Below, one piece after another: positions 6,835 through 57,798 of a stretch of DNA of 64,000 nucleotides; the first letter of the stretch is position 1; each line of letters begins with the position of its first letter. The notes under the pieces are model-generated. The model saw nothing but the letters and a program-made list of their open reading frames with translations, did not search any database and was not told the origin of the DNA. The stretch lies in NCBI GenBank assembly GCA_963815095.1, contig CAWFFH010000004.1, forward strand, positions 231,790 through 295,789. Direction: 5' to 3'. Source of the DNA: Candidatus Bathyarchaeota archaeon. Lineage in GTDB: Archaea; Thermoproteota; Bathyarchaeia; Bathyarchaeales; Bathycorpusculaceae. The translations under genes were made by a program, and so were the position numbers.

Positions 6835-6935
6835 TCTCGCCGACTATTGTTGTCGGCTACTCCCACAAACGTGTTCCCAACTAAACACCTACGAGAAATG
6901 CCCTAAATGTGGCTCCCAAACTTACTTCTTTTTTT
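6835..6935 (+). ncRNA. Candidate structured sRNA with three TCCCA motifs
   Basis: TATA-like 6801-6812; stems TCTCG/CGAGA, CCGAC/GTCGG and GTGTT/AACAC; T-run 6929-6935. Confidence 0.45.
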
Positions 6936-6946
6936 ATTTTCTGCAG

Positions 6947-9025
6947 TTAGGTTTTGAGTAACTCAAGCATTTTGTCAATTTTGTTGGTAGGTGGCATGCA
7001 GGTTTGGTCACGGCAAACGTATGCAGTGGGTTTGTGTTGGAGTTTCTCGTAGATTAAAGTTGGATTGGACTTGGCTTTTTCGGGCGTCCACATAGTCACG
7101 GTTAAGTTGGGTAAGTACGGTTTTCTTAAAGCCGCAAGCATTGCTACTATTACCTTGTCCGCTGGGTCACCCACTAAAACAACATTAAATGACGGTCCCA
7201 AAGCGAACTCTAACCCCGCAAGCAAAAACGTATGCCCAAGCGGTTGATTTTTAACTTCTTCTGAAAACGCCTTCAGCAGTTTTGTAGCGTAAGTTTCAAA
7301 GTAAACGTCTCCAGTTAAACGTGACAAACGCAGCAGATTATGCATAGCCACCGAGTTTCCTGAAGGCGCTGCTCCATCATAGATTTGTTTGAGTCTCGGA
7401 ACCGAATCGTCATCGGTTGAGGCAGTGAAGAAAAAGCCGCTTGTTTTCTCATCCCAAAATTGGTTAATCATAGTTTTGGTTAATTCAATGGAAACTTCCA
7501 AGTATTTCTCATCAAAACCAGCTTCGTAGAGCTCAATTAACCCGAAAACCAGGTACGCGTAATCATCTAAAAACCCATAAATCGCCCTTTCACCCTTCGC
7601 ATAACGATGGAATAGCTTAGAATCAGGGGTTTTCATAGTTTTTAGAATGAAATCTGTTGTTTTTGTTGCCGCTTCTAGATATTTTGGGTTCCCTAAAACT
7701 TGACTTGCCCGAGCTAAAGCAGCAATCATCAATCCGTTCCAATCAACCAGAACCTTATCGTCTTTTGCTGGATGAACCCGTTTCTCTCTATATTGGAAAA
7801 GGGCGTTAGTGATTTTTGCGAGCTTACCTATAAGTTCATCCATTATTAGTTTTGATTCTGAAGCCACCAGTTCTAGGGGTGTAGCAAGGTGAAGAATATT
7901 TTTTCCTGTTTTGCCTTTTTGTGGCTCATAATAGTTGCCTTCAGATTTTACGCCGAAGAACTTGATTGCTAACTCCGTGTCTTCTTGCGTAGCTTGCCTG
8001 ATTTCATCAAGAGTCCAGAGGTAAAATTTTCCTTCTTCTCCTTCACTATCAGCATCTTCAGCTGAATAGAAACCTCCTTCTAGTGACGCCAAATCTCTCA
8101 AGACATATTCTATTGTTTCCTTTGCTGTTATCATGAATTTTGCCTCGCCCGACTCTTGGTATGCTTCAAGGTAAGCTAACGTTAGCAGTGCTTGGTCATA
8201 GAGCATTTTCTCGAAATGCGGAACCAACCATTGAGCGTCGGTGGAGTAACGATGAAAACCAAGACCTACTTGGTCGAATATACCGCCTAACCTCATTGCG
8301 CGCAGGGTTTTTTCAACCATCGTCCAGGCGGATTTTTCTTTTGTTCTATTATAGTATCTTAAAAGGAATAATAGGTTGTGCGGGGAAGGGAATTTTGGGG
8401 CGTTGCCAAATCCTCCGTTTTCCTGGTCAAAACGTAAAAACAATTGCTCGTAAGCGTTATCAAGCGTAGCTTTGTCGAGATGATTTTCTGTTTCGGCTCC
8501 TGCCTGAATTGTTAATTGCTCTTTGACTTCTTTGCCTATTGATTCCATCTCTGCTTTTCTGGTTTTCCAAATCTCCCCAATTTGAGGAACAAGGCTCAAC
8601 ATCCCAACTGTGCCATACCGATTGTCCTTTGGGATGTAGCTGCCTACGAAAAAAGGGTTTTTTTCTGGAGACATTATGACGTTTAGGGGCCAGCCGCAGC
8701 TTCGTCCCATTGATTGGCAAACTGCCATGTATGCAGCGTCAAGGTCTGGGCGTTCTTCGCGGTCAACTTTGATGCAGATGAAAGTTTGGTTCATTAGCTG
8801 GGCAACTGGGGCATCTTCGAAACTTTCTTTTTCCATAACGTGGCACCAGTGGCATGTTGAGTAACCTATAGAAACAAAAACTGGTTTATCCTCCGCTTTA
8901 GCCCTCTCAAAAGCCTCCGGGCTCCATGGGTACCAATCAACAGGGTTGTAAGCATGCTGAAGAAGATACGGACTTTTCTCTTTAATCAGCCTGTTAGGTT
9001 TTCTTTCTTCAGAAATGTTCTGCAT
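6947..9025 (-). CDS. Thioredoxin-domain YyaL/SPATA20 (DUF255) family protein
   Basis: [25 protein letters not shown] and PHFEKMLYD motifs. Confidence 0.92.
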
Positions 9026-9096
9026 AAAAGAAGTCTCCTACTATACAAAGAACTGGTAGCTTATTTATCTATTAAACAAAAAAGAAGAATTAGGGC

Positions 9097-9543
9097 TTAA
9101 TATTTTACGCTGAGGTAAAGCAACACTGACAAAGCAGCTAACTCAAAGAGTGCAGGGAGAAATGCGAACGGTCCAAGACCGTATACTCTAAATCTAAACA
9201 GTCCAGTTACGAATGGGTGCGATGCAATGTCTTTTAGTAGGAATGCTGCTGCGAAAATTATCAGTCCAACTGTAAAGGGTGACCGAGTTTTATTATAGAT
9301 GCTTAAATATGATATTAAAACGATTACGAGTAATGCGATATTTATTGTCGCTATTATTGTGAAGGCTACGTAGAAGTATTCAAAGTCACCTGGAACGGAT
9401 CCTCCAGGTGGTAAAGCGCGTCTTACTAGAAAAGTGGGCTCGTGTAATGCGACTAGTGCCCAAAGAGCGGTAACTACTGCGACAGTTGCTATAATAGTGA
9501 TAATTATTCCTACTTTGAATCTATTGCTCATTTGTTTCTCCAT
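9097..9543 (-). CDS. Membrane protein cotranscribed with an HTH regulator
   Basis: Four hydrophobic segments; 18 bp downstream of the HTH gene. Confidence 0.75.
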   Translation of the reverse strand: MEKQMSNRFKVGIIITIIATVAVVTALWALVALHEPTFLVRRALPPGGSVPGDFEYFYVAFTIIATINIALLVIVLISYLSIYNKTRSPFTVGLIIFAAAFLLKDIASHPFVTGLFRFRVYGLGPFAFLPALFELAALSVLLYLSVKY

Positions 9544-9561
9544 TTTGGTGTTCTCCTTTTT

Positions 9562-9864
9562 CTACTTTTTCCCGATTTTTTGCATAATCTCCTCAAATAG
9601 GAAATAATTGTCTTCCATTGTTTGAGATAGAAAGTAAGTTGCTCCATACCTGTCACCGACAGAAGTTATTATTTTGTTCTTCTCTAAGACTTCAAGGTGA
9701 TGCCGCATCGTTTTGTAATCCATTTTTAGCGAGGTAGCAAGTTGATTTGCGTTCTGTGGAGTCTCTTTGAGCGAAGTGATTATTTTTGCACGGGTTGGTC
9801 CGCCTCTGGTACCTGCGATTAGCCATCCTAGCAGGTATTTTAAGGAACGTGCATTTGCGGACAT
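9562..9864 (-). CDS. ArsR-like winged-helix transcriptional regulator
   Basis: GTRGGPTRAKII...NANQLA...DYKTMRHHLEVL. Confidence 0.85.
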   Translation of the reverse strand: MSANARSLKYLLGWLIAGTRGGPTRAKIITSLKETPQNANQLATSLKMDYKTMRHHLEVLEKNKIITSVGDRYGATYFLSQTMEDNYFLFEEIMQKIGKK

Positions 9865-10558
9865 TTTTTGGGTCTCCGGGCATTCGGGATTCTTTGTCAG
9901 ATTTAATCTGATTCTGGTAATAAATGTGCGCCTTTCAGCGCTTAGACTAAATTGATTTGGATCAAAATTAGGAGTTAATTTGGGTGTAATTTTGAAATAT
10001 TATTTAATAATACATCGGGGTTTTGGTGAGATAGGTAACTGAGAAGAGATTTGAAATGAAAAAGGCCGTAAGCCCAACAACTGCCCAATCGAAAACCCCT
10101 CAAGTTTCTTCTCAGTTGCCACTTTTGTTTATCCACTAAAAATAGGTGGTAAATGTGGGAATAATCAATATAGCAATAAGATATATTTCGCAACCGAAAT
10201 TCGTGATTTACTAGTAATTCGTGCCGTCAGGTTTTTCGTTGGCAATTATGGGTTTATTCCGTTGAGTGTTTTAGCTAACCAGCAGACAGCCACCAACATT
10301 GCTAACGACTTAACTAACACCAATAAACCAGACAAGCCAATCAATCAATGCCAATTCAACGTAGATAGATTGCAGTTTATCCTCAGGTTTTGAATTTAGA
10401 GGAAGCGGAAATGGCGGGAGTTATACTCCACGACAGTATGGCCGAGATACTGCTGGTGGATCAGAAACTATCGATTCCATAGCGGTTTCGGCAATCATTA
10501 GTATGTTGGAACTTTTTGTAAATTAAATAGAAATTTGGGAGGCTGAATTTTCTTTGTG

Positions 10559-11800
10559 TTACTTTCGGATTTGTCCATCACCCAAAATAACGTACTTGGT
10601 TGTAGTTAGGTGCTGAACGCTCATGGGTCCCCTTGCGTGTAGTTTTTGGGTGCTGATTCCGATTTCTGCGCCTAAGCCGAATTGGTTGCCGTCTGTGAAC
10701 CTTGTGGATGCGTTCCAGTAGACTGCAGCTGAATCAACTTCGCGGATGAACTGCATGGCTTTTCCAAAGTCTGCTGTGATGATGCTGTCGCTATGTTTGG
10801 TTCCGTATTTGTTGATGTGTGCAATGGCTTCATCTAAGACTTTGACGACTTTGACGCCCATAATTAAATCAAGATATTCAGTGCCCCAGTCAGCTTCCGT
10901 TGCGGGTTTTACGTCGGAGACGATTTTGCGTGTCTCTTCGTCTCCTCTCACTTCCACACCATTCTTGCGCAACTCCGCAATCACTACGGGTAAGTACTGT
11001 TTGGCGATCTTTTGGTGAACCAGAAGTTTTTCGGCTGCGTTGCAGGTTCCGGGGCGTTGGCATTTTGCGTTTATCACGATGAGTGTTGCCTTATCGAGGT
11101 CAGCGTCTTCTTCTACGTAGATGTGGCAGTTGCCTGTTCCTGTTTCGATAACTGGAATTCTGGATTTCTCAACGACGGTTTTGATTAGGTCTGCGCCGCC
11201 TCGGGGAATCAACACATCGATGAACTCTCGCATACCCATCAACTCCTCTGCCACCTTGCGATCAGCTGAATTCAACACTTGAATCGCGTCAACAGGCACG
11301 TTCGTCCCAGCCAACGCATCCCGAAGTACCTCGGCAATGGCAACATTAGAGTTTAAAGCATCTGAACCGCCACGCAAAATCACTGCATTGCCCGATTTTA
11401 CGCAGATACCAGCGGAATCCGAAGTCACGTTGGGACGCGACTCGTAGATTATGCCGACTACTCCTAAGGGTACGCGAACTTGACTAATTATTAGACCGTT
11501 GGGGCGCGTCCAGCTACTAAGGATGGTACCGATCGGGTCAGGGAGAGCGGAAACCTCCCGAAGTTCATTTGCCATGGTCTGAACCTTCTTTTGGTCTAAC
11601 GCTAAACGATCCAGCAACGCTGCTTTAACGCCTTTAGCTTTTGCAGTTTCAACGTCTGCTTTATTCGCCGCCAAAATCTTCTCAGCATTCGCTTCTAAGG
11701 CGTTTGCCATTCTGCAAAGTGCCACATTTTTGGCATCTGCTGAAAGCTTGCCTATTTCAAAGGCTGCAACTTTGGCTTTTACGCATATTTCACGTATCAT
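10559..11800 (-). CDS. proA: Gamma-glutamyl phosphate reductase
   Basis: GIIYESRPNVT, CNAAE, NASTRFTDG and GISTQKLHARGP motifs. Confidence 0.96.
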   Translation of the reverse strand: MIREICVKAKVAAFEIGKLSADAKNVALCRMANALEANAEKILAANKADVETAKAKGVKAALLDRLALDQKKVQTMANELREVSALPDPIGTILSSWTRPNGLIISQVRVPLGVVGIIYESRPNVTSDSAGICVKSGNAVILRGGSDALNSNVAIAEVLRDALAGTNVPVDAIQVLNSADRKVAEELMGMREFIDVLIPRGGADLIKTVVEKSRIPVIETGTGNCHIYVEEDADLDKATLIVINAKCQRPGTCNAAEKLLVHQKIAKQYLPVVIAELRKNGVEVRGDEETRKIVSDVKPATEADWGTEYLDLIMGVKVVKVLDEAIAHINKYGTKHSDSIITADFGKAMQFIREVDSAAVYWNASTRFTDGNQFGLGAEIGISTQKLHARGPMSVQHLTTTKYVILGDGQIRK

Positions 11801-12921
11801 TTCTCTTCCTCGATTAGGTGGATGTTTCGATGCTCAATAACGTCCTTGGACTTTTCCGAACCAAGTTTTCTGTGCACTTCTGTTACCTGCAAGCCTTTAA
11901 TTAGGTTTAACTCGCCGCTGCTAAAGTTTGGGTTACCCTTGGCAAACGCTACGCCAGTTTCGTCGATGATGCTTACGACGTCGCCGACGTTGAAGCTGCC
12001 AACTACCCGTAACATGCCAACGGGGAGCAAGCTGGAACCATCAAGAATAGCTTTTTTTGCGCCTTCATTAACATGGATTTGTCCCTTTACCGCTGCACCG
12101 TAAGCTATCCAGCGTTTCACAGCGGGCATTCGGCTTTGAGGCTTAAAGTAAGTTCCAATATCTTTCCCAGCGAGAATATCCAAAATTACGTTTGCTTTTC
12201 GGCTGTTGGCTATGACTACGGGGATGCCGCAGGAAGTCGCGATTTCGGCTGCCTTGATTTTGCTTTGGATTCCCCCCCGACCCAATTTACTTTTACCGTT
12301 AAGGGAGTTTTTCAGTTCAGCGGTGATGGCATCGACTGTTTTGATAAGTTCGGCTCCTGGTTGCGAGGGATCCGCTGTATATAATCCTTCAACGTCGGAG
12401 AGAATAATCACTAAATCTGCGCACACGGCTCCAGCAACAAGAACTGAGAGTATGTCGTTGTCGCTAAAGTTTACTTTGTAGCCTTCTGTACGCATGAGTT
12501 CATCTACGGAGACTACGTCGTTTTCGTTTATTATTGGGATAACCCCGATTTTGAGAAGTAAAGCCAGCACATCGCATGTGTGAACGTAGGATGCCCTGTT
12601 AGAGAGGTCCTCAGCAGTCAGCAAAATTTGAGCAACTTTCAAACCAAATTTCTTGAAAAGCTCCCGATACTTTGCCATTAAAACGCTCTGACCTGTGGCC
12701 GCTGCTGCTTGCTGGAAAGCTACATCTTTGGGTTTAGGGGGAATTTCAAGTTCTGCGATGCCCGCTGCAACTGCTCCTGAGGTTACGAGTACTATTTTGT
12801 CTCCTTGTTTGGTGGCGCCGGCTATTTGGCTGGCTAAGTTTTCCATTTCTTTTTCATCCAGCTTTCCCTCGCTGGTTATGCCGTTGGTGCCGACTTTAAC
12901 AACGATTAATCTTGAAGGCAT
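11797..12921 (-). CDS. proB: Glutamate 5-kinase with PUA domain
   Basis: IVVKVGT, VTSGAV, INENDVV, DNDILS and C-terminal PUA; 4-nt overlap with proA. Confidence 0.96.
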   Translation of the reverse strand: MPSRLIVVKVGTNGITSEGKLDEKEMENLASQIAGATKQGDKIVLVTSGAVAAGIAELEIPPKPKDVAFQQAAAATGQSVLMAKYRELFKKFGLKVAQILLTAEDLSNRASYVHTCDVLALLLKIGVIPIINENDVVSVDELMRTEGYKVNFSDNDILSVLVAGAVCADLVIILSDVEGLYTADPSQPGAELIKTVDAITAELKNSLNGKSKLGRGGIQSKIKAAEIATSCGIPVVIANSRKANVILDILAGKDIGTYFKPQSRMPAVKRWIAYGAAVKGQIHVNEGAKKAILDGSSLLPVGMLRVVGSFNVGDVVSIIDETGVAFAKGNPNFSSGELNLIKGLQVTEVHRKLGSEKSKDVIEHRNIHLIEEEK

Positions 12922-13094
12922 CGGTCAATCACTTTTAGTTAGACTTATTTGAAATAGGGTTGACTTGCTTAAAAATGCAACCAAACACAGAAACAGAAAA
13001 TTTGTTTTATTGATTTAAAATTCATATTTTTGATGTGTAACCACTAAATTTTTTTGGAAAAATATATAAGGAATATGGACATGGCGTATGAAAC

Positions 13095-15302: not shown

Positions 15303-15397
15303 AACATAAAAAACGGGAAGTTTTTTCTTCTTCCCAAAAAATTTTTATTTTTAAAAGGTAACTTGTTATCTGTTTTTTCTTTATGATAGTTGGCTAG

Positions 15398-15733: not shown

Positions 15734-15893
15734 AAAATTTCACCTAAAAATTAGTTATATAAATTTAGTAAGTGATAGGATTTAACTTTTCCTACCTGGT
15801 TTTGTTAGGTAAATTGAGATAACTCGTTGGTTCTTCCGCAGTATATTTTTACTTCGCTATGCATTCACCTAAGCTAACTGAGATGGCACCCGC

Positions 15894-16982
15894 TTGAAAA
15901 TTATCGAAAAAAATCTTGCGCAAGGCTTCGTTAAAGTGGTTCCAGATTCGCCAGATGACCTATGGCACTTATACAACGTTATATACAAGGGTGACGAAGT
16001 TTATGCTTACAGTTCCAGAGCCATAAAAAACGACACCGAAACCTCTCGTCCAAAAAGTGCAGAGCGGGTTTCTGCATTTATGGGTGTAAAGGTTGAGTCG
16101 GTTGGTTGGGACAAGTTCTTGGGGAAGTTGCGGGTTCACGGTTTGATTTGTCATGCTCCAGACATTATACCCACAGGTGCACACCATACTCTTAGCATTG
16201 CTTTGAATCAGCCTATGACGATTGTAAAGAAGGAATGGCCCAAGCATCTCTTAGATAGATTAACTAAGGCAAGTGCAACTGAAAAACCTATACTAATCCT
16301 ATCCATAGACGACGAAGGCTTCGCTGTAGCGGAAACCAAACAGTATGGCGTAGAAACCCGTGTTGAACAACGCATGAGGCTTCCCGGAAAAGTTGAGGCA
16401 GAGAAGCGGGTGGAAGCAACGAAAGCGTATTTCAAACTTGCACTAACTAGTTTGAACAATTTGTGGGCTCAAAACCACAATCCTATTGTTATCATCGGTG
16501 CTGGCTACGTTAAAACTGATTTCGTAAAATATCTCAATGAGGAATCAAAGGAAATGTCTCGAGCGGTGGTTGATGTAAAAAGTGTTAACAATGGAGGGAC
16601 CGCAGGGGTCGATGAGGCATTGCGGTCGGGTGTTTTGTTGAAGGCAGCACATCAACTTCGAGTTGTAGATGAAACGGAAACGATGGAAGAAGTTATGAAA
16701 CGCTTGGGCAAGGGCGAAGGCAAAGTGACATATGGTCTCATTGAGGTCGAGAACGCGATTATGATAGGTGCAGTCGAGAAGTTGGTGGTTGCAGACACAA
16801 CGCTTCGCGATGCAGACGAGACACAGCGGCTTAAACTTGAAGACCTAATGCATCAGGTCGAAAAGCGCAATGCACCCATAACTGTGGTCAGTACAGAGCA
16901 TGAAGCAGGCGCCAAATTATTATCGCTAGGTGGAATCGTTGCACTTCTAAGGTTTCCTCTATATAGAGACACTCCAGCGTAA
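15894..16982 (+). CDS. pelA: Pelota (aDom34) ribosome rescue factor
   Basis: DDLWHLYNVI, GAHHTL and LGGIVALLRF motifs; the usual PGF reads AGY. Confidence 0.93.
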   Translation: MKIIEKNLAQGFVKVVPDSPDDLWHLYNVIYKGDEVYAYSSRAIKNDTETSRPKSAERVSAFMGVKVESVGWDKFLGKLRVHGLICHAPDIIPTGAHHTLSIALNQPMTIVKKEWPKHLLDRLTKASATEKPILILSIDDEGFAVAETKQYGVETRVEQRMRLPGKVEAEKRVEATKAYFKLALTSLNNLWAQNHNPIVIIGAGYVKTDFVKYLNEESKEMSRAVVDVKSVNNGGTAGVDEALRSGVLLKAAHQLRVVDETETMEEVMKRLGKGEGKVTYGLIEVENAIMIGAVEKLVVADTTLRDADETQRLKLEDLMHQVEKRNAPITVVSTEHEAGAKLLSLGGIVALLRFPLYRDTPA

Positions 16983-17109
16983 AAAGTTGTTAGAAATAAA
17001 AAAAATTCAAATTCCATTTCTAATAACCTTATAAGCTAGCCGTTTATAGCCCTTTAAATAGATGCTTTATATACCCCATTTTCTATTTAAATACTCAACC
17101 GTGAGTGAC

Positions 17110-19444: not shown

Positions 19445-19714
19445 AATTGATTAATAGAAATAAATAATAAAGCAAAATAATGTTTGAATTGTTGGTAAAC
19501 ATTATTTTTCTGTTGGATCTGTTTTTTCTTTGACCTACATAATCCTCATAATGCTTACTTGCGTGTTTCAATAATAAATATTATTTGTTACTTCCAATCA
19601 CTAGGGAATATGAACTTGTTTACTAAGCTGAGGTTAAATTATTTGATGTAAGACAAAAATTCATTATTTGAAATTCATAAAACCTATAATAGACTTCAAA
19701 CGAAAAGATAGACA

Positions 19715-19789
19715 AAGAGTTGCAGTCATGAAACCTTCCCCTTCTCCATTAAGGTTCATCCCAACTTTTATCCCGAGACTGCAACTCTT
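19715..19789 (+). ncRNA. Candidate sRNA (13-bp outer stem, TGAAACCTT/AAGG core)
   Basis: AAGAGTTGCAGTC/GACTGCAACTCTT perfect inverted repeat; TATA CCTATAAT at 19683-19690; core shared with 37779-37841. Confidence 0.6.
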
Positions 19790-19965
19790 AAACTAATTAC
19801 TCGATGAATCGTCTTAAGATCAAATTGTTAATTTATAGCGTGTTTTTACGGAGAATTGCTTTAAGGAAAATTCAATATTTCATTAACAAAAAGAATGTTT
19901 CGTTGATAATGTTCATGGGAGAAGACATAATTAGTTTAATATCCAATCAAAAGAGAGGAAACCCG

Positions 19966-23315: not shown

Positions 23316-23690
23316 TTAATCCAGTGTTTTACTAGTAAATGGCGTTTCACAGTAAGGACAAAAAGAAAAATTCGTAGATTGCAATTCGTTACCACAGTTT
23401 CTACATTTAACTAGCATTCCGTTTGCGGGTTTAAATTTGGCACCCAGAATTCTTGGTTCGGATTGCTTGATATTTTTCGCTGCATATGCTGCTGCTATTC
23501 CGATGGCCAAAGAAATAGCTGAGCTAATTGCTAATGAGAAAAAATATTCTTTGTAAGGGTATTGAGGATAAGTTCCTAATGGACCGAGGTCGACTTTAAT
23601 CACATAATATTGGGTGAAGACAGTTGCAACAATTAAGATTAGAAAGATACTAGTGGCAATATTTCCAATTATTTCAGCTGAGTTACCCAT
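23316..23690 (-). CDS. Membrane protein with C-terminal zinc ribbon
   Basis: Two TM segments; CRNCG...FCPYC. Confidence 0.75.
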   Translation of the reverse strand: MGNSAEIIGNIATSIFLILIVATVFTQYYVIKVDLGPLGTYPQYPYKEYFFSLAISSAISLAIGIAAAYAAKNIKQSEPRILGAKFKPANGMLVKCRNCGNELQSTNFSFCPYCETPFTSKTLD

Positions 23691-23940
23691 AATTTAATTC
23701 TCAAACATTATTTATCAAATTCTAATTTAAATTTATAACATCTCTGGTTGTCAAATGCAAGACACCTCGCTTAACGAGTGCACTTCCCTAATGCTTACCC
23801 ACCTCGCAAGGAAGGGCTTTAACTTGCAACATTCTAATCCTATTACAATGCAATTTTGAGTCTATCCAGTAAGACGCGAAAGCGAATAGAAAAGAGAATG
23901 CATATATTTAGAACAAATCTACATTATATTAGTGAATTTT

Positions 23941-24228
23941 ATGATTAATTTTGAAGAAATTATGGGGTTAAAGGTAGTAACTTCAGAAGCGCATATTATT
24001 GGAGAAGTGAAAGGAGCAAAAATTGATACCGCAACTTGGACTATAAAGTTCTTGAACGTGAAACTTACCGGTGACGCTGCTGAGAGTCTTGGATTCAAAA
24101 AGAGATTTAGAAGTTCCAAAATTTGTATTCCAGTTGGTATGGTTCGAGCAGTTGCGCATGTCGTGACGATCTCAAGGACTATAGCAGAGTTGGAAAGCTC
24201 TCAAGAAATTGTAGAGTGCAAAGACTAA
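23941..24228 (+). CDS. PRC-barrel domain protein
   Basis: GLKVVTSEAHIIGEV...IDTATW...IPVGMV pattern. Confidence 0.8.
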   Translation: MINFEEIMGLKVVTSEAHIIGEVKGAKIDTATWTIKFLNVKLTGDAAESLGFKKRFRSSKICIPVGMVRAVAHVVTISRTIAELESSQEIVECKD

Positions 24229-24402
24229 AAAACGCAAAAGGAATTTAGGAATTCAGTAAATAGTTGAAAACTTGAATAAACTCTAGCAAACAGACTCTTC
24301 TTTCGTTTAACCCTTATCAGCAACTGATTTACCTTGGACCCCTAAATCCCTTTATTTGCTGTAGTAGAAAAAAGGAGACTTGGCAGTTCAAGAAAAGTTA
24401 AA

Positions 24403-24894
24403 GTGTTTGATGACTTGACTGTTATTGGAGTGGATATTTTGACTTTCAATGCACTGGAAGTAGTTCCCAAAGTGGAACTTAACAAATACTTAGGCAAATG
24501 GTACGAAATAGCTCATCTTCCAGCCAAATTTCAAGAAGGATGTGAACAAACCACTGCAACTTACTCACTATTAGATAATGGCAGCATCGCTGTTTTGAAC
24601 GAGTGCAAAAAAGATGGTAAATATAAAAAAGCAAAGGGTAGTGCAAAAGTAGTTGACAAAATCACCCAGGCGAAACTTAAGGTAACATTTTTTTGGCCTT
24701 TTTATGGTGATTATTGGATTATAAAATTAGGAAAAGAGTATGAGTATTCTGTTGTGGGCACTCCAAATCGCAAGTACTTGTGGATATTGAGTAGAACCCC
24801 CAAAATGGATGAGCCGCTAATTTCTCAGTTGTTGGACTTTGTTAAGTCAAAGGGTTTTGATATTACAAATCTTATCAGAACCAATCATAGCTAA
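24403..24894 (+). CDS. Lipocalin (Blc-like), no signal peptide
   Basis: YLGKWYEIA, LKVTFFWPFYGDYW and YLWILSR motifs; likely start TTG 24439. Confidence 0.92.
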   Translation: MFDDLTVIGVDILTFNALEVVPKVELNKYLGKWYEIAHLPAKFQEGCEQTTATYSLLDNGSIAVLNECKKDGKYKKAKGSAKVVDKITQAKLKVTFFWPFYGDYWIIKLGKEYEYSVVGTPNRKYLWILSRTPKMDEPLISQLLDFVKSKGFDITNLIRTNHS

Positions 24895-25105
24895 AATGTA
24901 AAGCGTAAGTTTCTATAGCAAAGCGTTTTTCATTAAGTTAACTCCAAAAGCCTACTCCTCGCAATCATTGACTCTGTCTTGCATAACTGGCTACAAGCGA
25001 AGTAGGAATAAGATACTTGCTTAGCGCGCCTAAGTGTTTTTTATTAAATGCAAAGATGTTTTTCTGAAACGATTAAGCTTTAAAAGAAAGACCGCATTTC
25101 TATTA

Positions 25106-29474: not shown

Positions 29475-29615
29475 AACTTTATGACTATCCATTTATAGAG
29501 CCAAAGAGAGACTATTCACTTGTTTATTCTGTTTCTCAAAGTTCTAACACCCTTTAACGCGCGCAGTAGAATAAGCCATATTAGCTTTAATAATAATGTA
29601 TGAAAAGGCGTATCG

Positions 29616-30038
29616 ATGTACGAGGTTTACATCTTCATTTTAATATCTATCATCTTTGAAAGTGGAGGCGGCATGCTATATGGGATCGCCGTTGGATTCG
29701 ACCCCCTGTTGGTTTTTGCAACGACGCTCACGATAAATATCTTAACAGTTTTTGCATCCATGTTCGTGATAGATAGATTATTAAACTGGAAAAAAGGCTT
29801 GAGAAGTTGGCTTGAAAAAAGAACAGCGAGAGGTCAAAGACTTATCAACAAATATGCATGGATAGGCATAATAGCTGGGGTATTTGTGCTCTCGCCCATT
29901 CAGGTAGCAGTTATTAGTCGTCTAATATGCATTCAGCCAAACAAATTTTACCTACCATTAGTATTGGGGACAACACTTAGTGCTTTAGTATCTATGGGAA
30001 TCGCATTAGGCATATTCAAATTAATACTAGGTTGGTAA
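29616..30038 (+). CDS. Small multi-pass membrane protein (small multidrug-export/DedA-like)
   Basis: Four hydrophobic segments; weak family resemblance. Confidence 0.6.
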   Translation: MYEVYIFILISIIFESGGGMLYGIAVGFDPLLVFATTLTINILTVFASMFVIDRLLNWKKGLRSWLEKRTARGQRLINKYAWIGIIAGVFVLSPIQVAVISRLICIQPNKFYLPLVLGTTLSALVSMGIALGIFKLILGW

Positions 30039-34568: not shown

Positions 34569-34949
34569 ATGGAAAAAGAAGACCAAATTATAGAAGAATT
34601 AAAGAAAATTAGAGCTGCCCTTGAAAAACCACCAGCACCAGAACCTCCAAAAGGCTTTGTGAACGAATTCAAAGATTTCTTGTCGAAGTACAAGATTCTT
34701 GGCTTGGCAGTTGCGTTTGTTTTAGCATTGTATGTGGGTCTTTTGATTCAAGCGCTTGTTAAAGACTTTATTATTCCGCTTTTGGGCTTAGCAATACCTG
34801 GCTTGTCAAACTTGGCTACCTATTCTGTTGACGTTTTGAAGCAGACATTTGGTGTAGGCGACTTTTTAGTTGCTCTCATTACTTTCATTATAGTAGCACT
34901 TATTGTGTTCATTATAGTGAAAGTGGCTAAAAGAATGAAAATAGAATAA
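34569..34949 (+). CDS. mscL: Large-conductance mechanosensitive channel family protein
   Basis: EFKDFL...GLAVAFVL...LVKDFIIPL...GDFLVALITFIIVA. Confidence 0.85.
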   Translation: MEKEDQIIEELKKIRAALEKPPAPEPPKGFVNEFKDFLSKYKILGLAVAFVLALYVGLLIQALVKDFIIPLLGLAIPGLSNLATYSVDVLKQTFGVGDFLVALITFIIVALIVFIIVKVAKRMKIE

Positions 34950-35048
34950 ACCTATTTTCTTTTTTTTAACTAAAAAACCACAGGGAATTTTTGCTTTTTA
35001 AAAGCTTAAATTTGTAAGTAACAGAATAACGTTATCCAGGTTTTCATT

Positions 35049-37569: not shown

Positions 37570-37778
37570 CTATCTCAAAGTAAATTCTCATAAAAACATT
37601 AGGCTTAGGTTACAATCTAAAATAGGCAACGCTCAAGGATTGTTTGAAATTGATGTTTTCAAATGTCAAACCATCATTCTAAGGATAACTTATTGATTAT
37701 TTTGAGCATTAGATGATTGGGTGAACCCGTATGTGTAAGGGGCAAAATATTTATACATAAATAACACTGTTATACGTA

Positions 37779-37841
37779 ATGAGCAGGAAGCATAAATTGA
37801 AACCTTGCCCAAGGACCAATCCCCTTATGCTTCCTGCCCAT
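37779..37841 (+). ncRNA. Candidate sRNA (13-bp outer stem, TGAAACCTT/AAGG core)
   Basis: GCAGGAAGCATAA/TTATGCTTCCTGC perfect inverted repeat; TATA ATTTATAC at 37749-37756; T5 at 37846-37850. Confidence 0.6.
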
Positions 37842-37924
37842 ATAATTTTTCATACAATCATAATTTAATTTTTAATTAAAAAGACAATAACAAAATAGAG
37901 GGAATTTAATTAATCCCTAATCAA

Positions 37925-49192: not shown

Positions 49193-49196
49193 CAGT

Positions 49197-50929: not shown

Positions 50930-51075
50930 TTATAGTTGTTTTGCTTTGACCATTAGCCTAAGGGGTCATCAATTTGCTAATGTTTTTTTTTTGAAACATT
51001 GAGTTAAACAAATAAGTAAAATATTTTGTATAAAAATAGAAGAAAAAAGAAAAAGGAAAATGGAAGTTTTTGTGT

Positions 51076-51240
51076 TTAAATCTTTTTCTTATCTAATACT
51101 TCGCGGAAAGTCTTACCGCAGCATTCATAGAGCGCTATGGTAAGTTGTGTCCGTTTGCCTTTTTTGTCTGGTTTTCCAGCCATCTTCCAGGTTTTCTTTG
51201 CAGTTTTGACATCTTTTGCACATATTGGGCATTTTGCCAT
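51076..51240 (-). CDS. Cren7-like chromatin protein with Cys ligands
   Basis: Hand translation MAKCPICAKDVKTAKKTWKMAGKPDKKGKRTQLTIALYECCGKTFREVLDKKKI; KxW...IxL[YF]...GKxFR pattern of Cren7. Confidence 0.8.
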   Translation of the reverse strand: MAKCPICAKDVKTAKKTWKMAGKPDKKGKRTQLTIALYECCGKTFREVLDKKKI

Positions 51241-51479
51241 GGTTATTCCTCTAATGGGAACGTATCGTATGTATGGGTTTAAAACACTTTCTATCGGTTG
51301 CCTGTTAAATGGATAAAATGGGGCTTTTTTTAGGCAAAAACATGTTGAATTTACTATTTTTTATTGAAAAAAGTGAGTCCTCAGGGGCGGATTGCGGTGG
51401 GCAAATCAAACCCCTGAGTCTATATGATGTCAAGTTCTTGTCTAACTAGTATGAATCTAACGATTTTTTTCTTTTTTTC

Positions 51480-52034: not shown

Positions 52035-52079
52035 AAGTTAATTCCCATTTATTGCAAATGATTTTGGGTTTATAAAACT

Positions 52080-52703
52080 TTATAGCTTTTTTTTCAACTT
52101 TGAAGTTAACTGTTTTTTGTAGAGAGTTAAAAGAATTATGATGTTTATGATTATAAGATAGATGGGAAAAGCATATGCTGAAAAAGTCCAATATGTAATA
52201 ACGACCAAACTTGAAGATGCTCCAAATACTCCTATTATGAATGGCCAAACAGATTCAGTTTCAGGATTTGTCAATGATTTCTTAAGTGTGGGTATTGATG
52301 CCAATGCATCGCTACCTATAGCAAAAACGATGGCGACATTAGGTTCCTTGGTCAGCCACCACATCACAAGGGCAAGACCTGACAGCACACCGCAGAAATA
52401 GTCAAAGGTTGAAAGTTTCCAATAGGCCTTCTTTGCAAAGAACGAAGCCGTGAAAATCATAAGAGGAGAAAAACCAGCCATAAACACTGGCAAAACAGCC
52501 CAGCCAACACCGTTTGAAAGAGACGCAGCCGCAGCAATCAATGGCGCAATAGACCACATGAGCCAAGTCACGCGGTTAGGCTTGGTGTTTCCTGTAAACA
52601 TCGACCGTATGTAAACTAATGCTGCAGTCGTCGACGCAACCGCCGTGGCGAAGACGAGGTACTCGTACATATGCAAACAATTAGCGTTTGCAAATATAAG
52701 CAA
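52080..52703 (-). CDS. Conserved multi-pass membrane protein
   Basis: GNTKPNRVTW and PTLKKS..PETES; likely starts at MYEYL. Confidence 0.75.
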   Translation of the reverse strand: MLIFANANCLHMYEYLVFATAVASTTAALVYIRSMFTGNTKPNRVTWLMWSIAPLIAAAASLSNGVGWAVLPVFMAGFSPLMIFTASFFAKKAYWKLSTFDYFCGVLSGLALVMWWLTKEPNVAIVFAIGSDALASIPTLKKSLTNPETESVWPFIIGVFGASSSLVVITYWTFSAYAFPIYLIIINIIILLTLYKKQLTSKLKKKL

Positions 52704-53029
52704 ATTATCACAAACTGCATCTTTTTTGAATTAGGGTAAGTTTTGGAATTAATCTAGAAAAATTTCTTAGTAGCCGTTTAGAATCTGACATTATAGAGGT
52801 TGCTAAAGGCTCTAAAATTACTCCTAAAAGTTTTTTCATTTTAACCTTCTCATTAATGACTACGAGCCTCTTCTCAAAAGTGCAATATTTCATCTTCGGT
52901 CTTACACAAGACCTTTAATTGAAACTTAATTCTGAATAAGTATTTGTAGCAAGTAAACGTTTTATAAAAAAACCAAATTATACCTCCGTTGTGAAATAAA
53001 TAGCTAATATTTATGACGCTTTCTCAAAT

Positions 53030-53831
53030 ATGTCTACAAGCATAGTCAACGCTTTGCCTTCAATCCTTTTTGCAATCACAGTTATCATCATTGGCTTTGT
53101 AATCGGCTATTCGTTGGCAAATTAGCAACAAACTATCCACAAAATTGGGTTTAGAAAAGACATTTGATAAAACAACTGCTGGCGTTTCTTTCAAATCATC
53201 TGGTTTAGACCTCTCCAAAATCATCGGAGGATTAGTGACAGCATTCATAACGGTCATAGGAATAGTTCTAGGCATACAAATGCTCAGCATAGGTGGCACA
53301 GTCGGAGAATACTTTATTTCGATAGCAAGTTATCTTCCAAGACTCTTGGCCGGCGTAGTAATCATTATCTTTGGATTAATACTAGTGGAATTACTTGCAT
53401 CATTCATTGGAAACATGCTAAAACCAATGTTCCCAACAACAAAAGCAAACATAGCGGATATGCTCAAAAACCTGCTTCTAATCGGATTAGTGGCTTTCGT
53501 ATTACTCACAGCTCTCAACATCATGTTACTCTCAGGAAGCATAATCTACTCGCTAATACTTGGATTTGTAATTATAGCAGCTGGCATCGCCTTAACAGAT
53601 GGTTTAATGAAATCATTAATCGACGACCATGAAGAGTTTAAAGCAGTCGCAGGATACGCAAAATTCGTGCTATACAGTATTTTCCTAATAATTGGCGCAG
53701 GAGGAATATTCGCTACATTCCCAGGAGTCACAAGCATCATAGCCAACATCTCGTGGGGTTTCGCAATAGCCTTAGGAATTATGCTAATCCCGATAGCTTA
53801 TGCCTTAGCAAAAAAGATGACTAAAGAATAG
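53030..53831 (+). pseudogene. MscS-associated TM-helix-repeat (CmpX-like) protein with a 5' frameshift
   Basis: ATG 53030 frame (NALPSILFAITVIIIGFVIG) stops near 53123. The downstream frame carries the second repeat YLPRLLAGVVIIIFG. Confidence 0.65.
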
Positions 53832-54028
53832 ATACCATCAACTATTTTCTTTTTTTTAATAATAATAGATAAATTCCGATTTTGTTTAAGCGAACAACAA
53901 AACGCTAATTCTAATTGCCGATTGCATAGAAAATGATTGCTCATTTAGGGACTTTATGCATAAATCTTATGTGGATTTGTTTGACTTTTAGCTATTGAGT
54001 TGGCAAAACGAAAACAGAAATAGTTAAA

Positions 54029-54442
54029 TTACGTTTTGCGCGAAAGATACCCAGCCAAAGCTATTATGATAAGTTTCCATGCTGACCAGATAAGCCAAGC
54101 AACGTTTGGCTCAAAAATAACCTCCAAAGCAAGCACGCGATTCACTACAGAAACGGCAATAATCAGAGGCGGTGCCCACTTTAATTTACTCAACAACCCA
54201 AAGACAGAAACAGCATAAACCACCGCGTAGCCTAAAAGAATGGCGCTTGTTATCATAACGGCGCCATTTTTTCCTGCAAAACTTGCAATCAAACCACCGT
54301 ATACTGACAGCTCTCCTAATGAAGGGTCCCACAGAAAAAACGCCGCAGCTAAAACGTCCCCAGCAATGTTGAATATGACCAGAAATATCAGAATTTTGGT
54401 AATTAAGCTAGCATAATTTGGCTTTGAAGTTTTGGCACCCAT
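54029..54442 (-). CDS. Membrane protein
   Basis: Four hydrophobic segments. Confidence 0.65.
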   Translation of the reverse strand: MGAKTSKPNYASLITKILIFLVIFNIAGDVLAAAFFLWDPSLGELSVYGGLIASFAGKNGAVMITSAILLGYAVVYAVSVFGLLSKLKWAPPLIIAVSVVNRVLALEVIFEPNVAWLIWSAWKLIIIALAGYLSRKT

Positions 54443-54624
54443 GACTTACTTTTATGTCCCTTTTCTCTATTTATCGCTTGTCTCTACTGTTAGCCAGCCA
54501 TTAGAAAACCCTTTCTCCAGTTCACATAAAACAAACTGTTAAAAAAAAAATAAGAGCATTCTCCCTAAACTTCAAGAATTTAAATACAACTTAAGCAAAT
54601 TGAAACGCGTGGAGTAACGGAAAA

Positions 54625-55083
54625 ATGAAATGTTTGCTAATTGTCTACTCTTACCATCACAACAATACTCTAAAAATAGCGGAAGTCATGGCAAAGGCGC
54701 TTGAAGCAGAAATTAAAACGCCCCAGCAAACAAACCCAGAAGAAACCCAAAAATATGACTTAGTGGGGTTTGGCGCAGGAATTGATAGCGGAAAACACTA
54801 CAAGGTGTTGCTTGACTACGCCGAAAAACTGCCCCAAGTAGACAACAAGGACGCGTTCATTTTTTCCACTGCCGGAGTAACAGGAGAGAAAAAACTATCC
54901 AAGGACCATTTAAAGCTTAGGGAAAAATTGGAAGCTAAAGGATACCGAATAGTTGATGAATTCCAATGCAGAGGTTTCAACACAAACGTTTTCCTCAAGT
55001 ACTTTGGAGGTATGAACAAGGGTAGGCCCAATGAAGAAGACCTCAAACATGCGGAAACCTTCGCTGAGAAGCTGAAATGTTAA
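54625..55083 (+). CDS. Flavodoxin family protein
   Basis: YSYHHNNTLKIA, YDLVGFG, FIFSTAG and GRPNEEDL. Confidence 0.9.
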   Translation: MKCLLIVYSYHHNNTLKIAEVMAKALEAEIKTPQQTNPEETQKYDLVGFGAGIDSGKHYKVLLDYAEKLPQVDNKDAFIFSTAGVTGEKKLSKDHLKLREKLEAKGYRIVDEFQCRGFNTNVFLKYFGGMNKGRPNEEDLKHAETFAEKLKC

Positions 55084-55113
55084 ACCAAACTAAAAACGAA
55101 AAGTTTGACAAAC

Positions 55114-55530
55114 TTAACTTTTAAAATGGGTATGCGTGTGCAAACCGTAATCAGGTTGGGCGCGTAGCCTTTTGTATAGATAGCCAATAATTACTCCAAC
55201 AAAGAGAAACCTTGGTACATTAAGCATTGTACCGAAGAGGAAGTAATAAAGGGCATCACTCGTCCCAAAACTTGCGGGGGCTTCCAGTAGGATTGTGCCA
55301 ATGACTAGGGCAATGATGCTTAGTATTACGGATTTTAGAATTGAATTCTTTGTCGGAATCTTTTCAAAAAAACGAAACAGGAAAAAGCTGACAAAGAATC
55401 CGATAATTAAACCAGCAGGCAAAGAACCGACCCAAACCGTTTCCGCGCTCCATCGCGCAACTCTATAATCCGCTGCGAAGGGAAGAAGGGAAGTTGCGAT
55501 GGAAATTGTCCAGAAGGCTAATCCGCCCAC
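55114..55530 (-). CDS. Membrane protein
   Basis: Four TM segments; start uncertain because the frame stays open upstream. Confidence 0.6.
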   Translation of the reverse strand: MGGLAFWTISIATSLLPFAADYRVARWSAETVWVGSLPAGLIIGFFVSFFLFRFFEKIPTKNSILKSVILSIIALVIGTILLEAPASFGTSDALYYFLFGTMLNVPRFLFVGVIIGYLYKRLRAQPDYGLHTHTHFKS

Positions 55531-55611
55531 GATCGCCAGTACTACTATTTTTCTCCAGATATCTTTTGATTGGGCTATCTTTTTTCTCCCTCTTACTTAA
55601 TTATAGTCTTT

Positions 55612-56331
55612 CTATTTCTGTTCCTTAACTGCCATAATCAAAAGCCATACAGTAAGAGCAATTTCCGCAATGAAGCTGATCGCATTTCCTGGATAAGCTA
55701 ATATTTTGTAGTCAGGGAGAAGGAAACCCTGTAAAAACCAACTCATGTTGCCGAAGAAATCAAGGATCAACAGTAGACCTAAAAATTTAGGAAGGAAGCT
55801 CGATTTGTAAACTAAGTATCCAAGGGGAAGTAGCCAAGCGCTAAAAAATATCTGGGCGATTAGAAAGCCATTTGTGTATAGATTGAGAGATGACATTGCC
55901 ATGGCTTGCAGTTGCCCTGTTTGAAATACGCTTAAGTAGTTAGCGCCGCTCAAAAACTGAAGGGCGGCAAATAGATTTAGCGCATTAAGGCACTCTACAG
56001 CGACACCGCCCAAGTTTAATACCAAGAGCAGCAAAGCCAAGTTTTTGTTTACCGGTTTTAATAACACGTATAGTGCCCATGCCGCTAAAACAAAAAACAC
56101 TGCAGATACTAGCTCAGTTATAAAACCGAATCGGAATAGCCCCTGAGAAGATACAATATTATTGGCTGTGGTTGCTGCCTCTCCGGATACAATAATATTT
56201 CCGCGAATATACGAGGCTAAGACTGTAGTTAATATGAAAATGAGATAAAACAGTCCCGCCATTCTTGCGGTCTTGCGTGGTGATAGATCTGCGATCTTCT
56301 GGCGGATAGAATTTTCTCCTTCAATTGACAT
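55612..56331 (-). CDS. DUF4386 family membrane protein
   Basis: ARMAGLFYL, YVLLKPVNK, GYLVYKSSFLPK and EIALTVWLL. Confidence 0.85.
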   Translation of the reverse strand: MSIEGENSIRQKIADLSPRKTARMAGLFYLIFILTTVLASYIRGNIIVSGEAATTANNIVSSQGLFRFGFITELVSAVFFVLAAWALYVLLKPVNKNLALLLLVLNLGGVAVECLNALNLFAALQFLSGANYLSVFQTGQLQAMAMSSLNLYTNGFLIAQIFFSAWLLPLGYLVYKSSFLPKFLGLLLILDFFGNMSWFLQGFLLPDYKILAYPGNAISFIAEIALTVWLLIMAVKEQK

Positions 56332-56890
56332 AAATGATAGTTCGGCGGTTATGCCTTATAAAAGTAATTGGCAAGGTGCTACTTGTTACAAGAGCGCTGA
56401 CTCTACTGCTTCATTGGGTTAAATAAGGCATCTTCAAAGAATGACTCCACGAATTCACTTCTTGAGCGCTTTTGTTTTAGAGCTTCTTTTTCTATTTTCT
56501 CTAATATACGTTTAGAAAGGGCTATGCTTACTGGGTGTTTGCGATAGTCAAATTTTCTTGACCTAAAAGGGACAGAGGATCGGCAAACTCAACCGTGGGA
56601 AGAGGTCTTATGATTCTATCGTTTCCCTGACTTGATTGCTTAATGCTAAGTCCAAGCAGAGTCAACATGCGACGGGCGCCGATTTAGCAATCTTTCCTTA
56701 CTACGCTTCAAGGGTACCCCCTTTTTTTCTACAAATCTGTAGAATTATATGCTTTCACATATCGGGCGCTTTCTAAGCCCCTCAAAGGCATCCATCTCGC
56801 GCGATAGCAATAACTTATTGGCATTTTAGAAAACCACTTATCCTGTAATATCCAAAGGAAGGGTGAGTACAATCATCCGTGGGAAAAGGT

Positions 56891-57163
56891 CTACTTTTTC
56901 AACGAATCCGGTTTTCGATCCCTAATTAGCATCGAAACTAAGAACAAAGAAATGAGCAAAGGCAGAATTGTGATGCTGTCGAATTCTGGTACGGTTGGAC
57001 TTGGTGAAATGGAAGTTGCTTGTATAGTTATGGTCTGTGTGGGACTCCATGCACTTTCTCCATCGGCAAGAACACCAAAAGCAGTCTGAGAAGGAACGAG
57101 AGGATCATGACTTGCTGGTTCTTGCGTGTAATAGTATCCATAAATGGCTAAAACTTGCTCAAG
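56891..57163 (-). pseudogene. 3' fragment of a PEF-CTERM-type surface protein
   Basis: Start-less 90-codon frame ...QVLAIYG...GESAWSPTQTITI...PTVPEF-hydrophobic-RDRK; begins 25 bp from the tRNA-Phe 3' end. Confidence 0.75.
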
Positions 57164-57188
57164 TTAGGCTTAATTTCAGGGTAATTGG

Positions 57189-57265
57189 TGGTGCCGAGGG
57201 CAGGGTTTGAACATGCGACGACTCGGTCTTCAGCCGAGCGCTCTCCCAGGCTGAGCTACCTCGGC
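57189..57265 (-). tRNA. tRNA-Phe(GAA), intronless, CCA encoded
   Basis: Acceptor GCCGAGG/CCTCGGC; anticodon arm CTCGG-CTGAAGA-CCGAG; one T-stem mismatch (U52-C62). Confidence 0.92.
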
Positions 57266-57539
57266 ACATAACCCGGGATACCACATCAAAAGTAAAGCTA
57301 GGTATTTTAAATGTTTCTGATGATTTTTATGCTTAGATTCCAAATAACGCATAATGGTTCATAATGAGATAACCCGTAAGTGCGCTGCCCAAAAAACATG
57401 CGAAGATTAGAAAACCGTCATGCTTGTGTTCTTCAAAGCGGTGGTTTTCATTCATTTGAATTCCCTATTATCGTAGTTTATGTGTTTGATAAGTAAAGGT
57501 TTTATGAAGGAAAACTATGTATTCACAATCCCCAGTTAG

Positions 57540-57613
57540 GGGCCGTTAGTCTAGCTGGCTAGGACGTCGCCCTCACGCGGCGAAGATCACCGGTTCAAAT
57601 CCGGTACGGCCCA
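57540..57613 (+). tRNA. tRNA-Val(CAC), intronless
   Basis: Acceptor GGGCCGT/ACGGCCC; anticodon arm TCGCC-CTCACGC-GGCGA; T arm ACCGG-TTCAAAT-CCGGT. Confidence 0.96.
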
Positions 57614-57798
57614 TTTTCATAGTTATTTTGCTTTAAATTTGATAAAAAATTCCATTTGCGCGTTTGATAATTGTGGATTAATTTACTAATTGCTATATGT
57701 GTTCTAGTGAAACAGCTTTAGTAACTACGGGCCCATCCCCCTTGAGGTCTGAGTCCGGTAGAGACCCAAACCGCTTTAGGATAGAATCCATTAAATCA

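Follow-up and report, generated by a model that had tools for sequence, protein, structure and literature searches.

Three candidate families of small structured RNAs in a Bathyarchaeota genome, with a putative partner common to an exporter leader and a stand-alone RNA

Introduction

Bathyarchaeia are abundant, uncultured archaea of soils and sediments, and in the literature on Bathyarchaeota, supplementary files aside, we found no description of non-coding RNAs, riboswitches or small RNAs (sRNAs). A 64,000-nucleotide (nt) stretch of DNA from a Candidatus Bathyarchaeota archaeon, referred to here as the window (G000:C4:231790-295789), raises the question whether such RNAs are encoded there, as a first-pass annotation had read nine intergenic, C-rich fold-back elements, most of them placed behind a TATA-like box, as one undescribed multi-copy sRNA family. 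How many of these elements are RNAs, do they belong to one family and what could they act on? Our analysis points to three separate small structured RNAs and not to nine: two of the listed elements, called e3 and e7, and an additional one, e10, which forms the leader of an exporter operon in relatives. For this picture as a whole, including the step in which one partner would recognize both the e10 leader and the e7 sRNA, we see about even chances.

Materials and Methods

The genome (G000) comprises 2.69 Mb in 9 contigs with a G+C content of 40-42%. Its genus is represented by 120 species genomes in our collection, of which G112 is the closest relative (91-95% identical). The nine elements are labelled e1 to e9 by position, and e10 designates the extra element at 10034-10120. 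Covariance models were built for e7 (R1), e10 (R2) and e3 (R3, from the two e3 sequences of G000 and G112), and window scans were run with filters off. The e7 alignment consists of 33 sense-strand sequences; the 19 opposite-strand sequences among the 52 cmsearch matches were left out. Each element was folded and compared with 200 dinucleotide shuffles to obtain z-scores. A TATA-like word was defined as an A/T run of at least 7 nt that contains TA and is centred near -26. Pairing was assessed as the share of paired alignment cells compared with the same share after the pairing partners had been slid. The whole window was scanned with Rfam 15 at the gathering score and at E <= 1.

Results

A conserved RNA between promoter and exporter operon

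The most widespread of the three RNAs is e10. It is the best non-self match of the e7 model in the window (R1, 10039-10115, 19.5 bits), followed by e3 with 18.4 bits, and noise starts at about 12 bits. Using R2, e10 was detected in 85 of the 120 genus genomes and in 2 of 23 genomes of the other genera of the family, and it was found in none of 115 genomes from 11 other families of the order; at the DNA level the region is matched in 66 of the 120 genus genomes. In an alignment of 24 sequences 94.1% of the cells are paired, compared with 40-57% for slid partners, and 10 of the 24 pairs show compensatory changes. As the stem contains many G-U pairs, which would be A-C on the other strand, the strand of the RNA is fixed, and R2 scores e10 with 90.9 bits on the plus strand and 28 bits on the minus strand. 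The word UGCCCA is present in 22 of these 24 sequences, and the distance from the TATA box to the start of e10 is 17-30 nt across all of them.

The position of e10 in the 5' untranslated region (UTR) is conserved across species, as expected of a cis-acting leader: in 22 of 23 relatives the downstream start codon follows 28-41 nt behind its end. In one relative (G046) the operon behind e10 encodes a permease with FtsX and MacB_PCD domains, an ABC_tran ATPase and an HtrA-like protease with Trypsin_2 and PDZ domains (Pfam). In G000 the permease gene is a remnant, whose pieces lie in differing frames (10196-10321, 10323-10415 and 10404-10463) and match the 5' coding region of the gene in relatives (tblastx). 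Despite this decay, e10 of G000 has kept a perfect stem by two adjacent compensatory changes that are unique to it.

Upstream of e10 and in divergent orientation, a gene for an ArsR-like regulator is located, which is present in 110 of the 120 genomes with orthologues that are 70-95% identical; the G046 orthologue matches Pfam HTH_5 (2.2e-9). Such a divergent gene lies within 3 kb upstream of 82 of 99 e10 copies, at a median distance of 886 nt, and paralogous copies of e10 adjoin paralogous ArsR-like regulators. In relatives the e10 promoter module also precedes a gene of 185 amino acids (aa) without a Pfam match, which is located between the regulator and e10 and is missing in G000. A second e10 promoter module, followed by an apparent truncated 5' arm of an e10-type stem, was observed at G000:C3:1525947-1526040 and is probably a decayed e10 paralogue.

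A stand-alone RNA with its own promoter

An initial DNA search detected relatives of e7 in 7 of 24 sampled genus genomes, and R1 extended this to 31 of the 120, sometimes with 2-3 distinct loci per genome; G000 has one. The model scores e7 with 65.8 bits on the plus strand and 35.6 bits on the minus strand. In the alignment 92.9% of the cells are paired, compared with 36-43% for slid partners, and 11 of the 19 pairs have changed on both sides, with such changes in the terminal stem (13 bp) as well as in the inner hairpin. The loop word UGCCCA occurs in 31 of the 33 sequences. Promoter and RNA together (about 140 nt) differ from G112 at 2 positions, whereas the flanks differ by about 10%.

The promoter elements of e7 are likewise kept across the 30 family members compared with flanks. 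A search with the e7-promoter pattern among about 185,000 species genomes matched 28 stretches, which are titled Bathyarchaeota or Bathyarchaeia except for 2 with the title "uncultured archaeon", and no other convincing copy of the upstream element was found in G000. A run of at least four T within 25 nt 3' of e7 is found in 22 of the 33 members, compared with 20% of random 25-mers of the window. Synteny is partial, with a CxxCxxCC-domain gene downstream of e7 in 5 genomes. Judged from these sequence features, e7 is best described as a stand-alone unit with a T run behind it. The promoter palindrome ATAACAnTGTTAT or close variants of it were also observed at four other G000 loci (C3:1354778, C3:734168, C8:32622 and C4:173172; 10 strand matches including e7). 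At C3:1354778, at least, it separates a TATA box from a gene start, a position that hints at a shared operator; beyond this the other occurrences gave no functional lead.

Are e7 and e10 RNAs at all, or could these elements be palindromic DNA sites, relics of mobile elements or small coding genes? An ATG or GTG opens e7 and e10 in several genomes, short frames are readable and some genomes have 2-4 copies. However, the many G-U pairs of the modelled strand are mismatches on the other strand and in cruciforms, and the sense models score 30-80 bits above the antisense. Each element is single-copy in G000 and its promoter is conserved along with it; at e7 and e10 this promoter directly abuts the 5' arm. 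We therefore consider this alternative highly improbable. A coding function of e7 and e10 was rejected on reading the alignments, as indels between start and motif are not multiples of three and several members lack any ATG.

A third and narrower family

DNA searches found e3 beyond G000 only in G112. Using R3, 6 further copies were detected in 5 other genomes, and the family thus consists of 8 sequences in 7 of the 120 genus genomes. The model scores e3 with 109.8 bits in sense and 28 bits in antisense orientation. Between G000 and G112 a single change was found in 75 nt, which retains a G-U pair, whereas the flanks are about 6% different. Four pairs show compensatory changes among the 8 sequences, and the upstream TTATTTGAAATTCATAAA..TATTAT promoter precedes all 8 copies. 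UCUCC in the loop and AUCCC(U/G) in the 3' single strand are each present in 7 of the 8 sequences, and UGCCCA is present in none of them. The neighbouring gene is ttuA in G000 and G112 and a convergent gene of 347 aa in the other genomes; as the neighbours differ, e3 appears to be an independent gene. No e3-like hairpin was found upstream of ttuA in twelve other genus genomes, and the homologues sit elsewhere. In other genomes, the DNA similarity to the ttuA-like gene begins about 125 nt past the first ATG of the open reading frame (ORF; 19804-19930). Its true start may lie farther downstream, with e3 in its upstream region in G000 and G112.

Relationship of the three RNAs

The three RNAs have a common design, in which a long stem formed by the 5' and 3' ends begins about 21-24 nt behind the TATA box of a conserved promoter. 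Beyond this, e7 and e10 have UGCCCAA(UCG) in common, followed after a few nt by CCCC, and they are reciprocal best cross-matches, with R2 scoring e7 at 21.2 bits. The ranking of a genome-wide search for the motif with a flanking stem was headed by e10 (21-bp stem), e3 (13 bp) and e7 (13 bp). The remaining matches have stems of 9-11 bp and are at control level (11 of 155 sites; controls 11 of 132, 18 of 132 and 20 of 155). R3 on e7 yields 12.5 bits in sense and 15.4 bits in antisense orientation, and by sequence comparison e3 is not detectably homologous to e7 or e10, the architecture alone being common to them. The families co-occur: 28 of the 31 e7-positive genomes are also e10-positive, and all 7 e3-positive genomes are e7-positive. 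This nested occurrence fits a nested history, though it is confounded by shared genome ancestry.

A fold-back candidate outside the window (G000:C3:523545-523632, minus strand) bears CUGCCCAAACG..ACCCCUUC. It has a module-like promoter upstream and a divergent winged-helix (HTH_45) gene beside it, and 2 of the 5 genomes tested have relatives of it. Two AT-rich intergenic inverted repeats in the window, 16974-17039 (21 bits) and 34925-34971 (18 bits), match the e10 model as hairpins only and may be 3'-end structures. CCCAA repeats as the mark of a wider family including e1 were dropped, as the genome has 591 pairs and 91 triples of CCCAA and other permutations of the word cluster just as often, for example CCAAC with 591 and 122.

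The nine listed elements as a set

All nine sequences are present where the first-pass annotation had placed them, and its view that e3 and e7 (19715/37779) are the sole strong pair agrees with both folding and conservation. The claim that the elements fold back holds for a part of the list: e3 (z = -6.1, 0 of 200 shuffles as good), e7 (-6.2, 0/200) and e8 (-4.8, 1/200) are far above their shuffles, e1 (-3.4, 0/200), e5 (-2.8, 3/200) and e2 (-2.0, 9/200) are intermediate, and e4 (-1.1, 23/200), e6 (-0.2, 75/200) and e9 (-0.2, 76/200) behave like shuffled sequences. The proposed TATA-like word near -26 is present at e1, e2, e3, e4, e6 and e7 and missing at e5, e8 and e9. The C-rich, G-poor interiors were borne out for the conserved families (29-32% C, 12-13% G). 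That the list contains undescribed promoter-driven fold-back RNAs with exposed C-rich segments was confirmed for e3 and e7: the Rfam scan of the whole window returned the archaeal RNase P RNA and two tRNAs, and e3, e7 and e10 were without any family match, even at E <= 1. That e3 and e7 are not the ends of a miniature inverted-repeat transposable element also proved correct. The outer stems differ between families, e3, e7 and e10 each have a conserved promoter of their own, and no second copy of any of the nine was found in G000 by blastn, in agreement with the e7 and e10 models.

The unification of all nine elements in one multi-copy sRNA family did not survive, as seven of the nine are without support and conservation backs e3 and e7 only. 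The frequency of TATA-like words, six of nine compared with a base rate of 16% of the non-coding window positions, could speak for such a family, but this enrichment is expected because the elements had been picked by their TATA words. In addition, R1, R2 and R3 have no match to e1, e2, e4, e5, e6, e8 or e9 in the window at E <= 10, and e4, e6 and e9 fold at shuffle level. Moreover, e4, e5 and e6 are as diverged in G112 as their flanks or have lost pairs, e2 lies within a pseudogene remnant and the e8 hairpin is missing in 19 other genomes. A common family of nine is for these reasons barely credible. Fold-backs as a class are not in excess either, since inverted repeats with perfect arms of 11 bp or more and spacers of 20-70 nt gave 37 clusters genome-wide, compared with 33 in a complement-only and 70 in a mirror control.

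In detail, e1, which we keep as a mere candidate, is covered by none of the 150 genus DNA matches listed other than those in G000 itself; the matches end at about 6784, and its region is not in the G112 assembly, where a contig ends. Next to it (6598-6782) we observed a 41-aa Cys-rich ORF (6609-6734, minus strand) with its promoter. This conserved multi-copy unit, which has no Pfam match, is present in 104 of the 120 genus genomes, often several times, and in at least three places in G000. Element e2 (10368-10496, minus strand) was rejected, as it lies antisense within the decayed permease gene remnant.

The elements e4, e5 and e9 look like chance. For e4, G112 matches only from 23796 onward, and divergence in the shared part exceeds that of the neighbouring promoter; e5 has no TATA-like word, and both of its arms are altered in G112 without compensation. 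Furthermore, e9 is not in G112, where similarity ends at 57613, the exact 3' end of a tRNA-Val gene, and an integrated element in G000 or G112 may have its border here. In the neighbourhood of e4, the segment 23152-23795 including an ORF (23316-23690, weak DUF7575) has no counterpart in G112, which holds two copies of the region matching 23796-24984. Element e6 is, by its position alone, probably the 5' UTR of the gene 29616-30038 for a small multidrug export protein (Pfam PF06695). As a fold-back it was rejected, with a z-score at shuffle level and a change in G112 that breaks a stem pair.

The hairpin of e8 differs from G112 by one compensatory pair and one G-U pair. It is confined to these two genomes, and its 5' arm is missing in 19 others, in which only the 3' part (CCCACCGCAAT) and about 150 nt downstream are conserved; e8 is not supported as an sRNA gene. 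A 54-aa zinc-ribbon ORF (51076-51240, minus strand) has its promoter and leader in these 150 nt. As the TATA-like word abuts the e8 stem, it is not located at -26. A scan for bacterial-type terminators returned nothing at e8; read by eye, the stem is followed after 10 nt by a T6 run and is preceded by a nitroreductase gene, whose stop codon is 61 nt away. The sequence before the zinc-ribbon ORF (51241-51405, minus strand) is conserved near letter for letter in about 20 genomes, which is beyond the expectation for a plain promoter; a leader RNA or more than one binding site may be hidden in it.

Outside the window, a long poly-T running into poly-A near a contig end (G000:C1:176936-177049) looks like an assembly artefact. 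The positions of the RNAs and of most other features are compiled in Table 1.

Table 1. Positions in the window of the three RNAs, their promoters, neighbouring genes and further listed elements
Feature	Position	Strand	Description
e10 RNA	10034..10120	+	21-bp terminal stem, small GGC/GCC hairpin, unpaired GCCCAAC..CUGCCCAAUCG..ACCCC
e10 promoter module	9964..10010	+	Direct repeats ATTAGG.. / ATTTGGGT; TATA box TTTAATAA ending 23 nt before the RNA
ArsR-like winged-helix regulator gene	9562..9864	-	100 aa; divergent from the e10 promoter
FtsX/MacB permease remnant	10157..10463	+	Frameshifted, truncated (tblastx)
e7 RNA	37779..37841	+	13-bp terminal stem; inner hairpin exposing UUGCCCAA, then unpaired UCCCC
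e7 promoter	37726..37773	+	Upstream element, TATA box, palindrome
e7 upstream element	37726-37747	+	CCCGTA-N-TAAGGGGCAAAA
e7 TATA box	37750-37757	+	TTTATACA
e7 promoter palindrome	37761-37773	+	ATAACACTGTTAT
T5 run downstream of e7	37846..37850	+	Likely archaeal termination signal
e3 RNA	19715..19789	+	13-bp terminal stem, inner hairpin, pyrimidine loop (..CCCCUUCUCC..), unpaired ..AUCCCGA
e3 promoter	19664..19691	+	TTATTTGAAATTCATAAA then TATA box CCTATAATA, ending about 23 nt before the RNA
e1	6835..6935	+	Hairpin, T7 run at end, TATA-like word upstream; fold z -3.4
e4	23756..23828	+	Unsupported; fold z -1.1
e5	24318..24361	+	Unsupported
e6	29522..29576	+	Starts about 22 nt past a TATA word, extends to the start of gene 29616-30038
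e8	51380..51418	-	Hairpin around genus-conserved word CCCACCGCAAT
e9	57725..57761	+	Unsupported; fold z -0.2

Discussion

What could these RNAs do? We propose that the terminal stem, in which the predicted first base is paired to the 3' end, would define and protect the ends of the RNA and that the invariant unpaired motif would be its functional part. One motif would be offered by the e10 leader and by the e7 sRNA to a common putative partner, for which a protein or ligand is likelier than Shine-Dalgarno sequences in bulk, and e7 could then compete with the e10 leader or act in parallel. Our confidence in this last step, in which e7 is a trans copy of the motif in the e10 leader, is low. Apart from this pair, e3 with its UCUCC loop may act as an anti-Shine-Dalgarno-type sRNA, a role that fits it better than a common partner.

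Several points weigh against this proposal. The transcripts, their ends and their strand are predicted from the DNA, and the partner shared by e7 and e10 is putative. Kinship among the genomes means that shuffle-based covariation counts overstate independence, and the e3 family comprises just 8 sequences from 7 genomes, two of them nearly identical. Part of the cross-score between e7 and e10 reflects generic hairpin geometry, since R2 gives the AT-rich hairpin at 16974-17039 21.0 bits, as much as e7. A run of at least four T after e10 is found in 7 of 24 members, which is near background (20%), so that in relatives e10 is a 5' leader and not a separate sRNA. Finally, a 21-bp stem without an alternative pairing evident by eye is unlike most riboswitches.

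An alternative is antisense regulation, in which the translation of target mRNAs would be blocked by base pairing between their G-rich ribosome-binding sites and the unpaired C-rich segments. In Firmicutes, C-rich unpaired segments of RsaE/RoxS-type sRNAs reportedly pair with the ribosome-binding sites of their targets. In form these RNAs, among them RoxS (PMC5419742), and Staphylococcus RNAIII are the closest to ours, exposing unpaired C-rich words on a structured scaffold with a G-poor interior. In e3, e7 and e10 the words UGCCCA/CCCC or UCUCC are indeed in predicted unpaired positions. The differences are that our RNAs belong to another domain of life, match no Rfam family at E <= 1 and show no enrichment of complementary words at starts. 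Archaeal precedents for sRNAs directed against ribosome-binding sites are sRNA41 and sRNA154 of Methanosarcina mazei, whose loops are proposed to mask the ribosome-binding sites of targets according to a review (PMC5867862). Like ours, they are intergenic and promoter-driven in that account (PMC5867862). On our side, e3, e7 and e10 are closed by a terminal stem of 13-21 bp, the UGCCCAA of e7 and e10 is no plain anti-Shine-Dalgarno word, and one of the families is a cis leader.

The composition of the interiors, C-rich and G-poor, speaks for an antisense function. The same applies to the UCUCC of e3 (7 of 8 sequences), which can pair with GGAG- or GGAGG-type words before local start codons, and to predicted duplexes of e10 with its own start, in which CCCA pairs with the UGGG of AUGGG and a second C-rich word with AGGUG. 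However, the words complementary to the motifs are not enriched at -50 to +25 of 3586 crude gene starts (TTGGGCA 35 observed and 33 expected, GAAGGGG 4 and 8, AAGGGG 26 and 30), which leaves the earlier suggestion of an action on G-rich leaders unsupported. Nor is the pairing of the e10 interior with its own start region any better than that of shuffled interiors (mean z = -0.43, 22 sequences). Although all seven letters of UGCCCAA are nearly invariant, only CCCA is able to pair with the conserved AUGGG start context, and this pairing accounts for 4 of the 7. An antisense mechanism is possible, yet we consider it rather unlikely for the RNAs as a whole, and since the antisense tests gave no support, we favour recognition by a common protein or ligand.

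If the partner were a small molecule, e10 could be a riboswitch-like, ligand-sensing leader of the exporter operon, with e7 as a free-standing copy of this aptamer. Many orphan riboswitch candidates precede exporters. In relatives, e10 likewise lies between the promoter and the Shine-Dalgarno word of a MacB/FtsX-ABC operon, and in 22 of 23 of them this places it in a transporter operon's 5' UTR; it presents conserved unpaired nucleotides inside a covarying closing stem in a family that is not in Rfam. It differs from exporter 5'-UTR elements in its unusually long and stable stem and in the stand-alone paralogue e7. The 21-bp closing stem, for which no competing structure is visible by eye, speaks against ligand sensing, as does the stretch from the stem to the Shine-Dalgarno word, which is conserved neither in length nor in sequence. 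Furthermore, the first half of the motif lies in a hairpin loop in e7 but in a single strand in e10, so that one common binding pocket is not obvious. Overall, a ligand-sensing leader seems distinctly improbable to us.

Another variant assumes that leader and sRNA are a target-and-decoy pair for one trans-acting factor, comparable to an archaeal Csr/Rsm system. In its boldest form the factor would be the closely linked ArsR-like protein itself, which is conserved to an unusual degree, and the RNA transcribed from the promoter would mimic the operator and act back on its own transcription factor. On one strand of the e10 promoter, the presumed operator repeats have the sequence ACCCAAAT..ACCCTAAT, and 11 nt separate their CCC starts; the tandem GCCCAAU..GCCCAAU words in e10 RNA are spaced by 11 nt too. 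The likeness to CsrB/RsmZ lies in the target-decoy logic, with a short motif that recurs unpaired in a leader (e10) and in a separate sRNA (e7). In contrast to CsrB/RsmZ, our RNAs carry 1-3 motif copies each instead of many, and the motif is C-rich and not GGA. We regard this variant as very doubtful and retain a common, putative partner of e7 and e10 as our favoured reading.

Archaeal C/D box sRNAs carry the C box (RUGAUGA) close to their 5' end and the D box (CUGA) close to their 3' end. None of the 33 e7, 24 e10 and 8 e3 sequences contains the two together. The three RNAs are new families of a known kind of RNA.

The fate of the original list illustrates that TATA-like words in combination with short stems are a weak criterion, as two of nine picks were real and the best member, e10, had been overlooked. 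For the Bathyarchaeia, three RNA families are now defined with promoters, structures and covariation, and one of them is tied to a conserved cluster of regulator, exporter and protease. The models and coordinates are usable in metatranscriptomes of peat and soil, and the pair of leader and sRNA with its invariant motif is testable in vitro.

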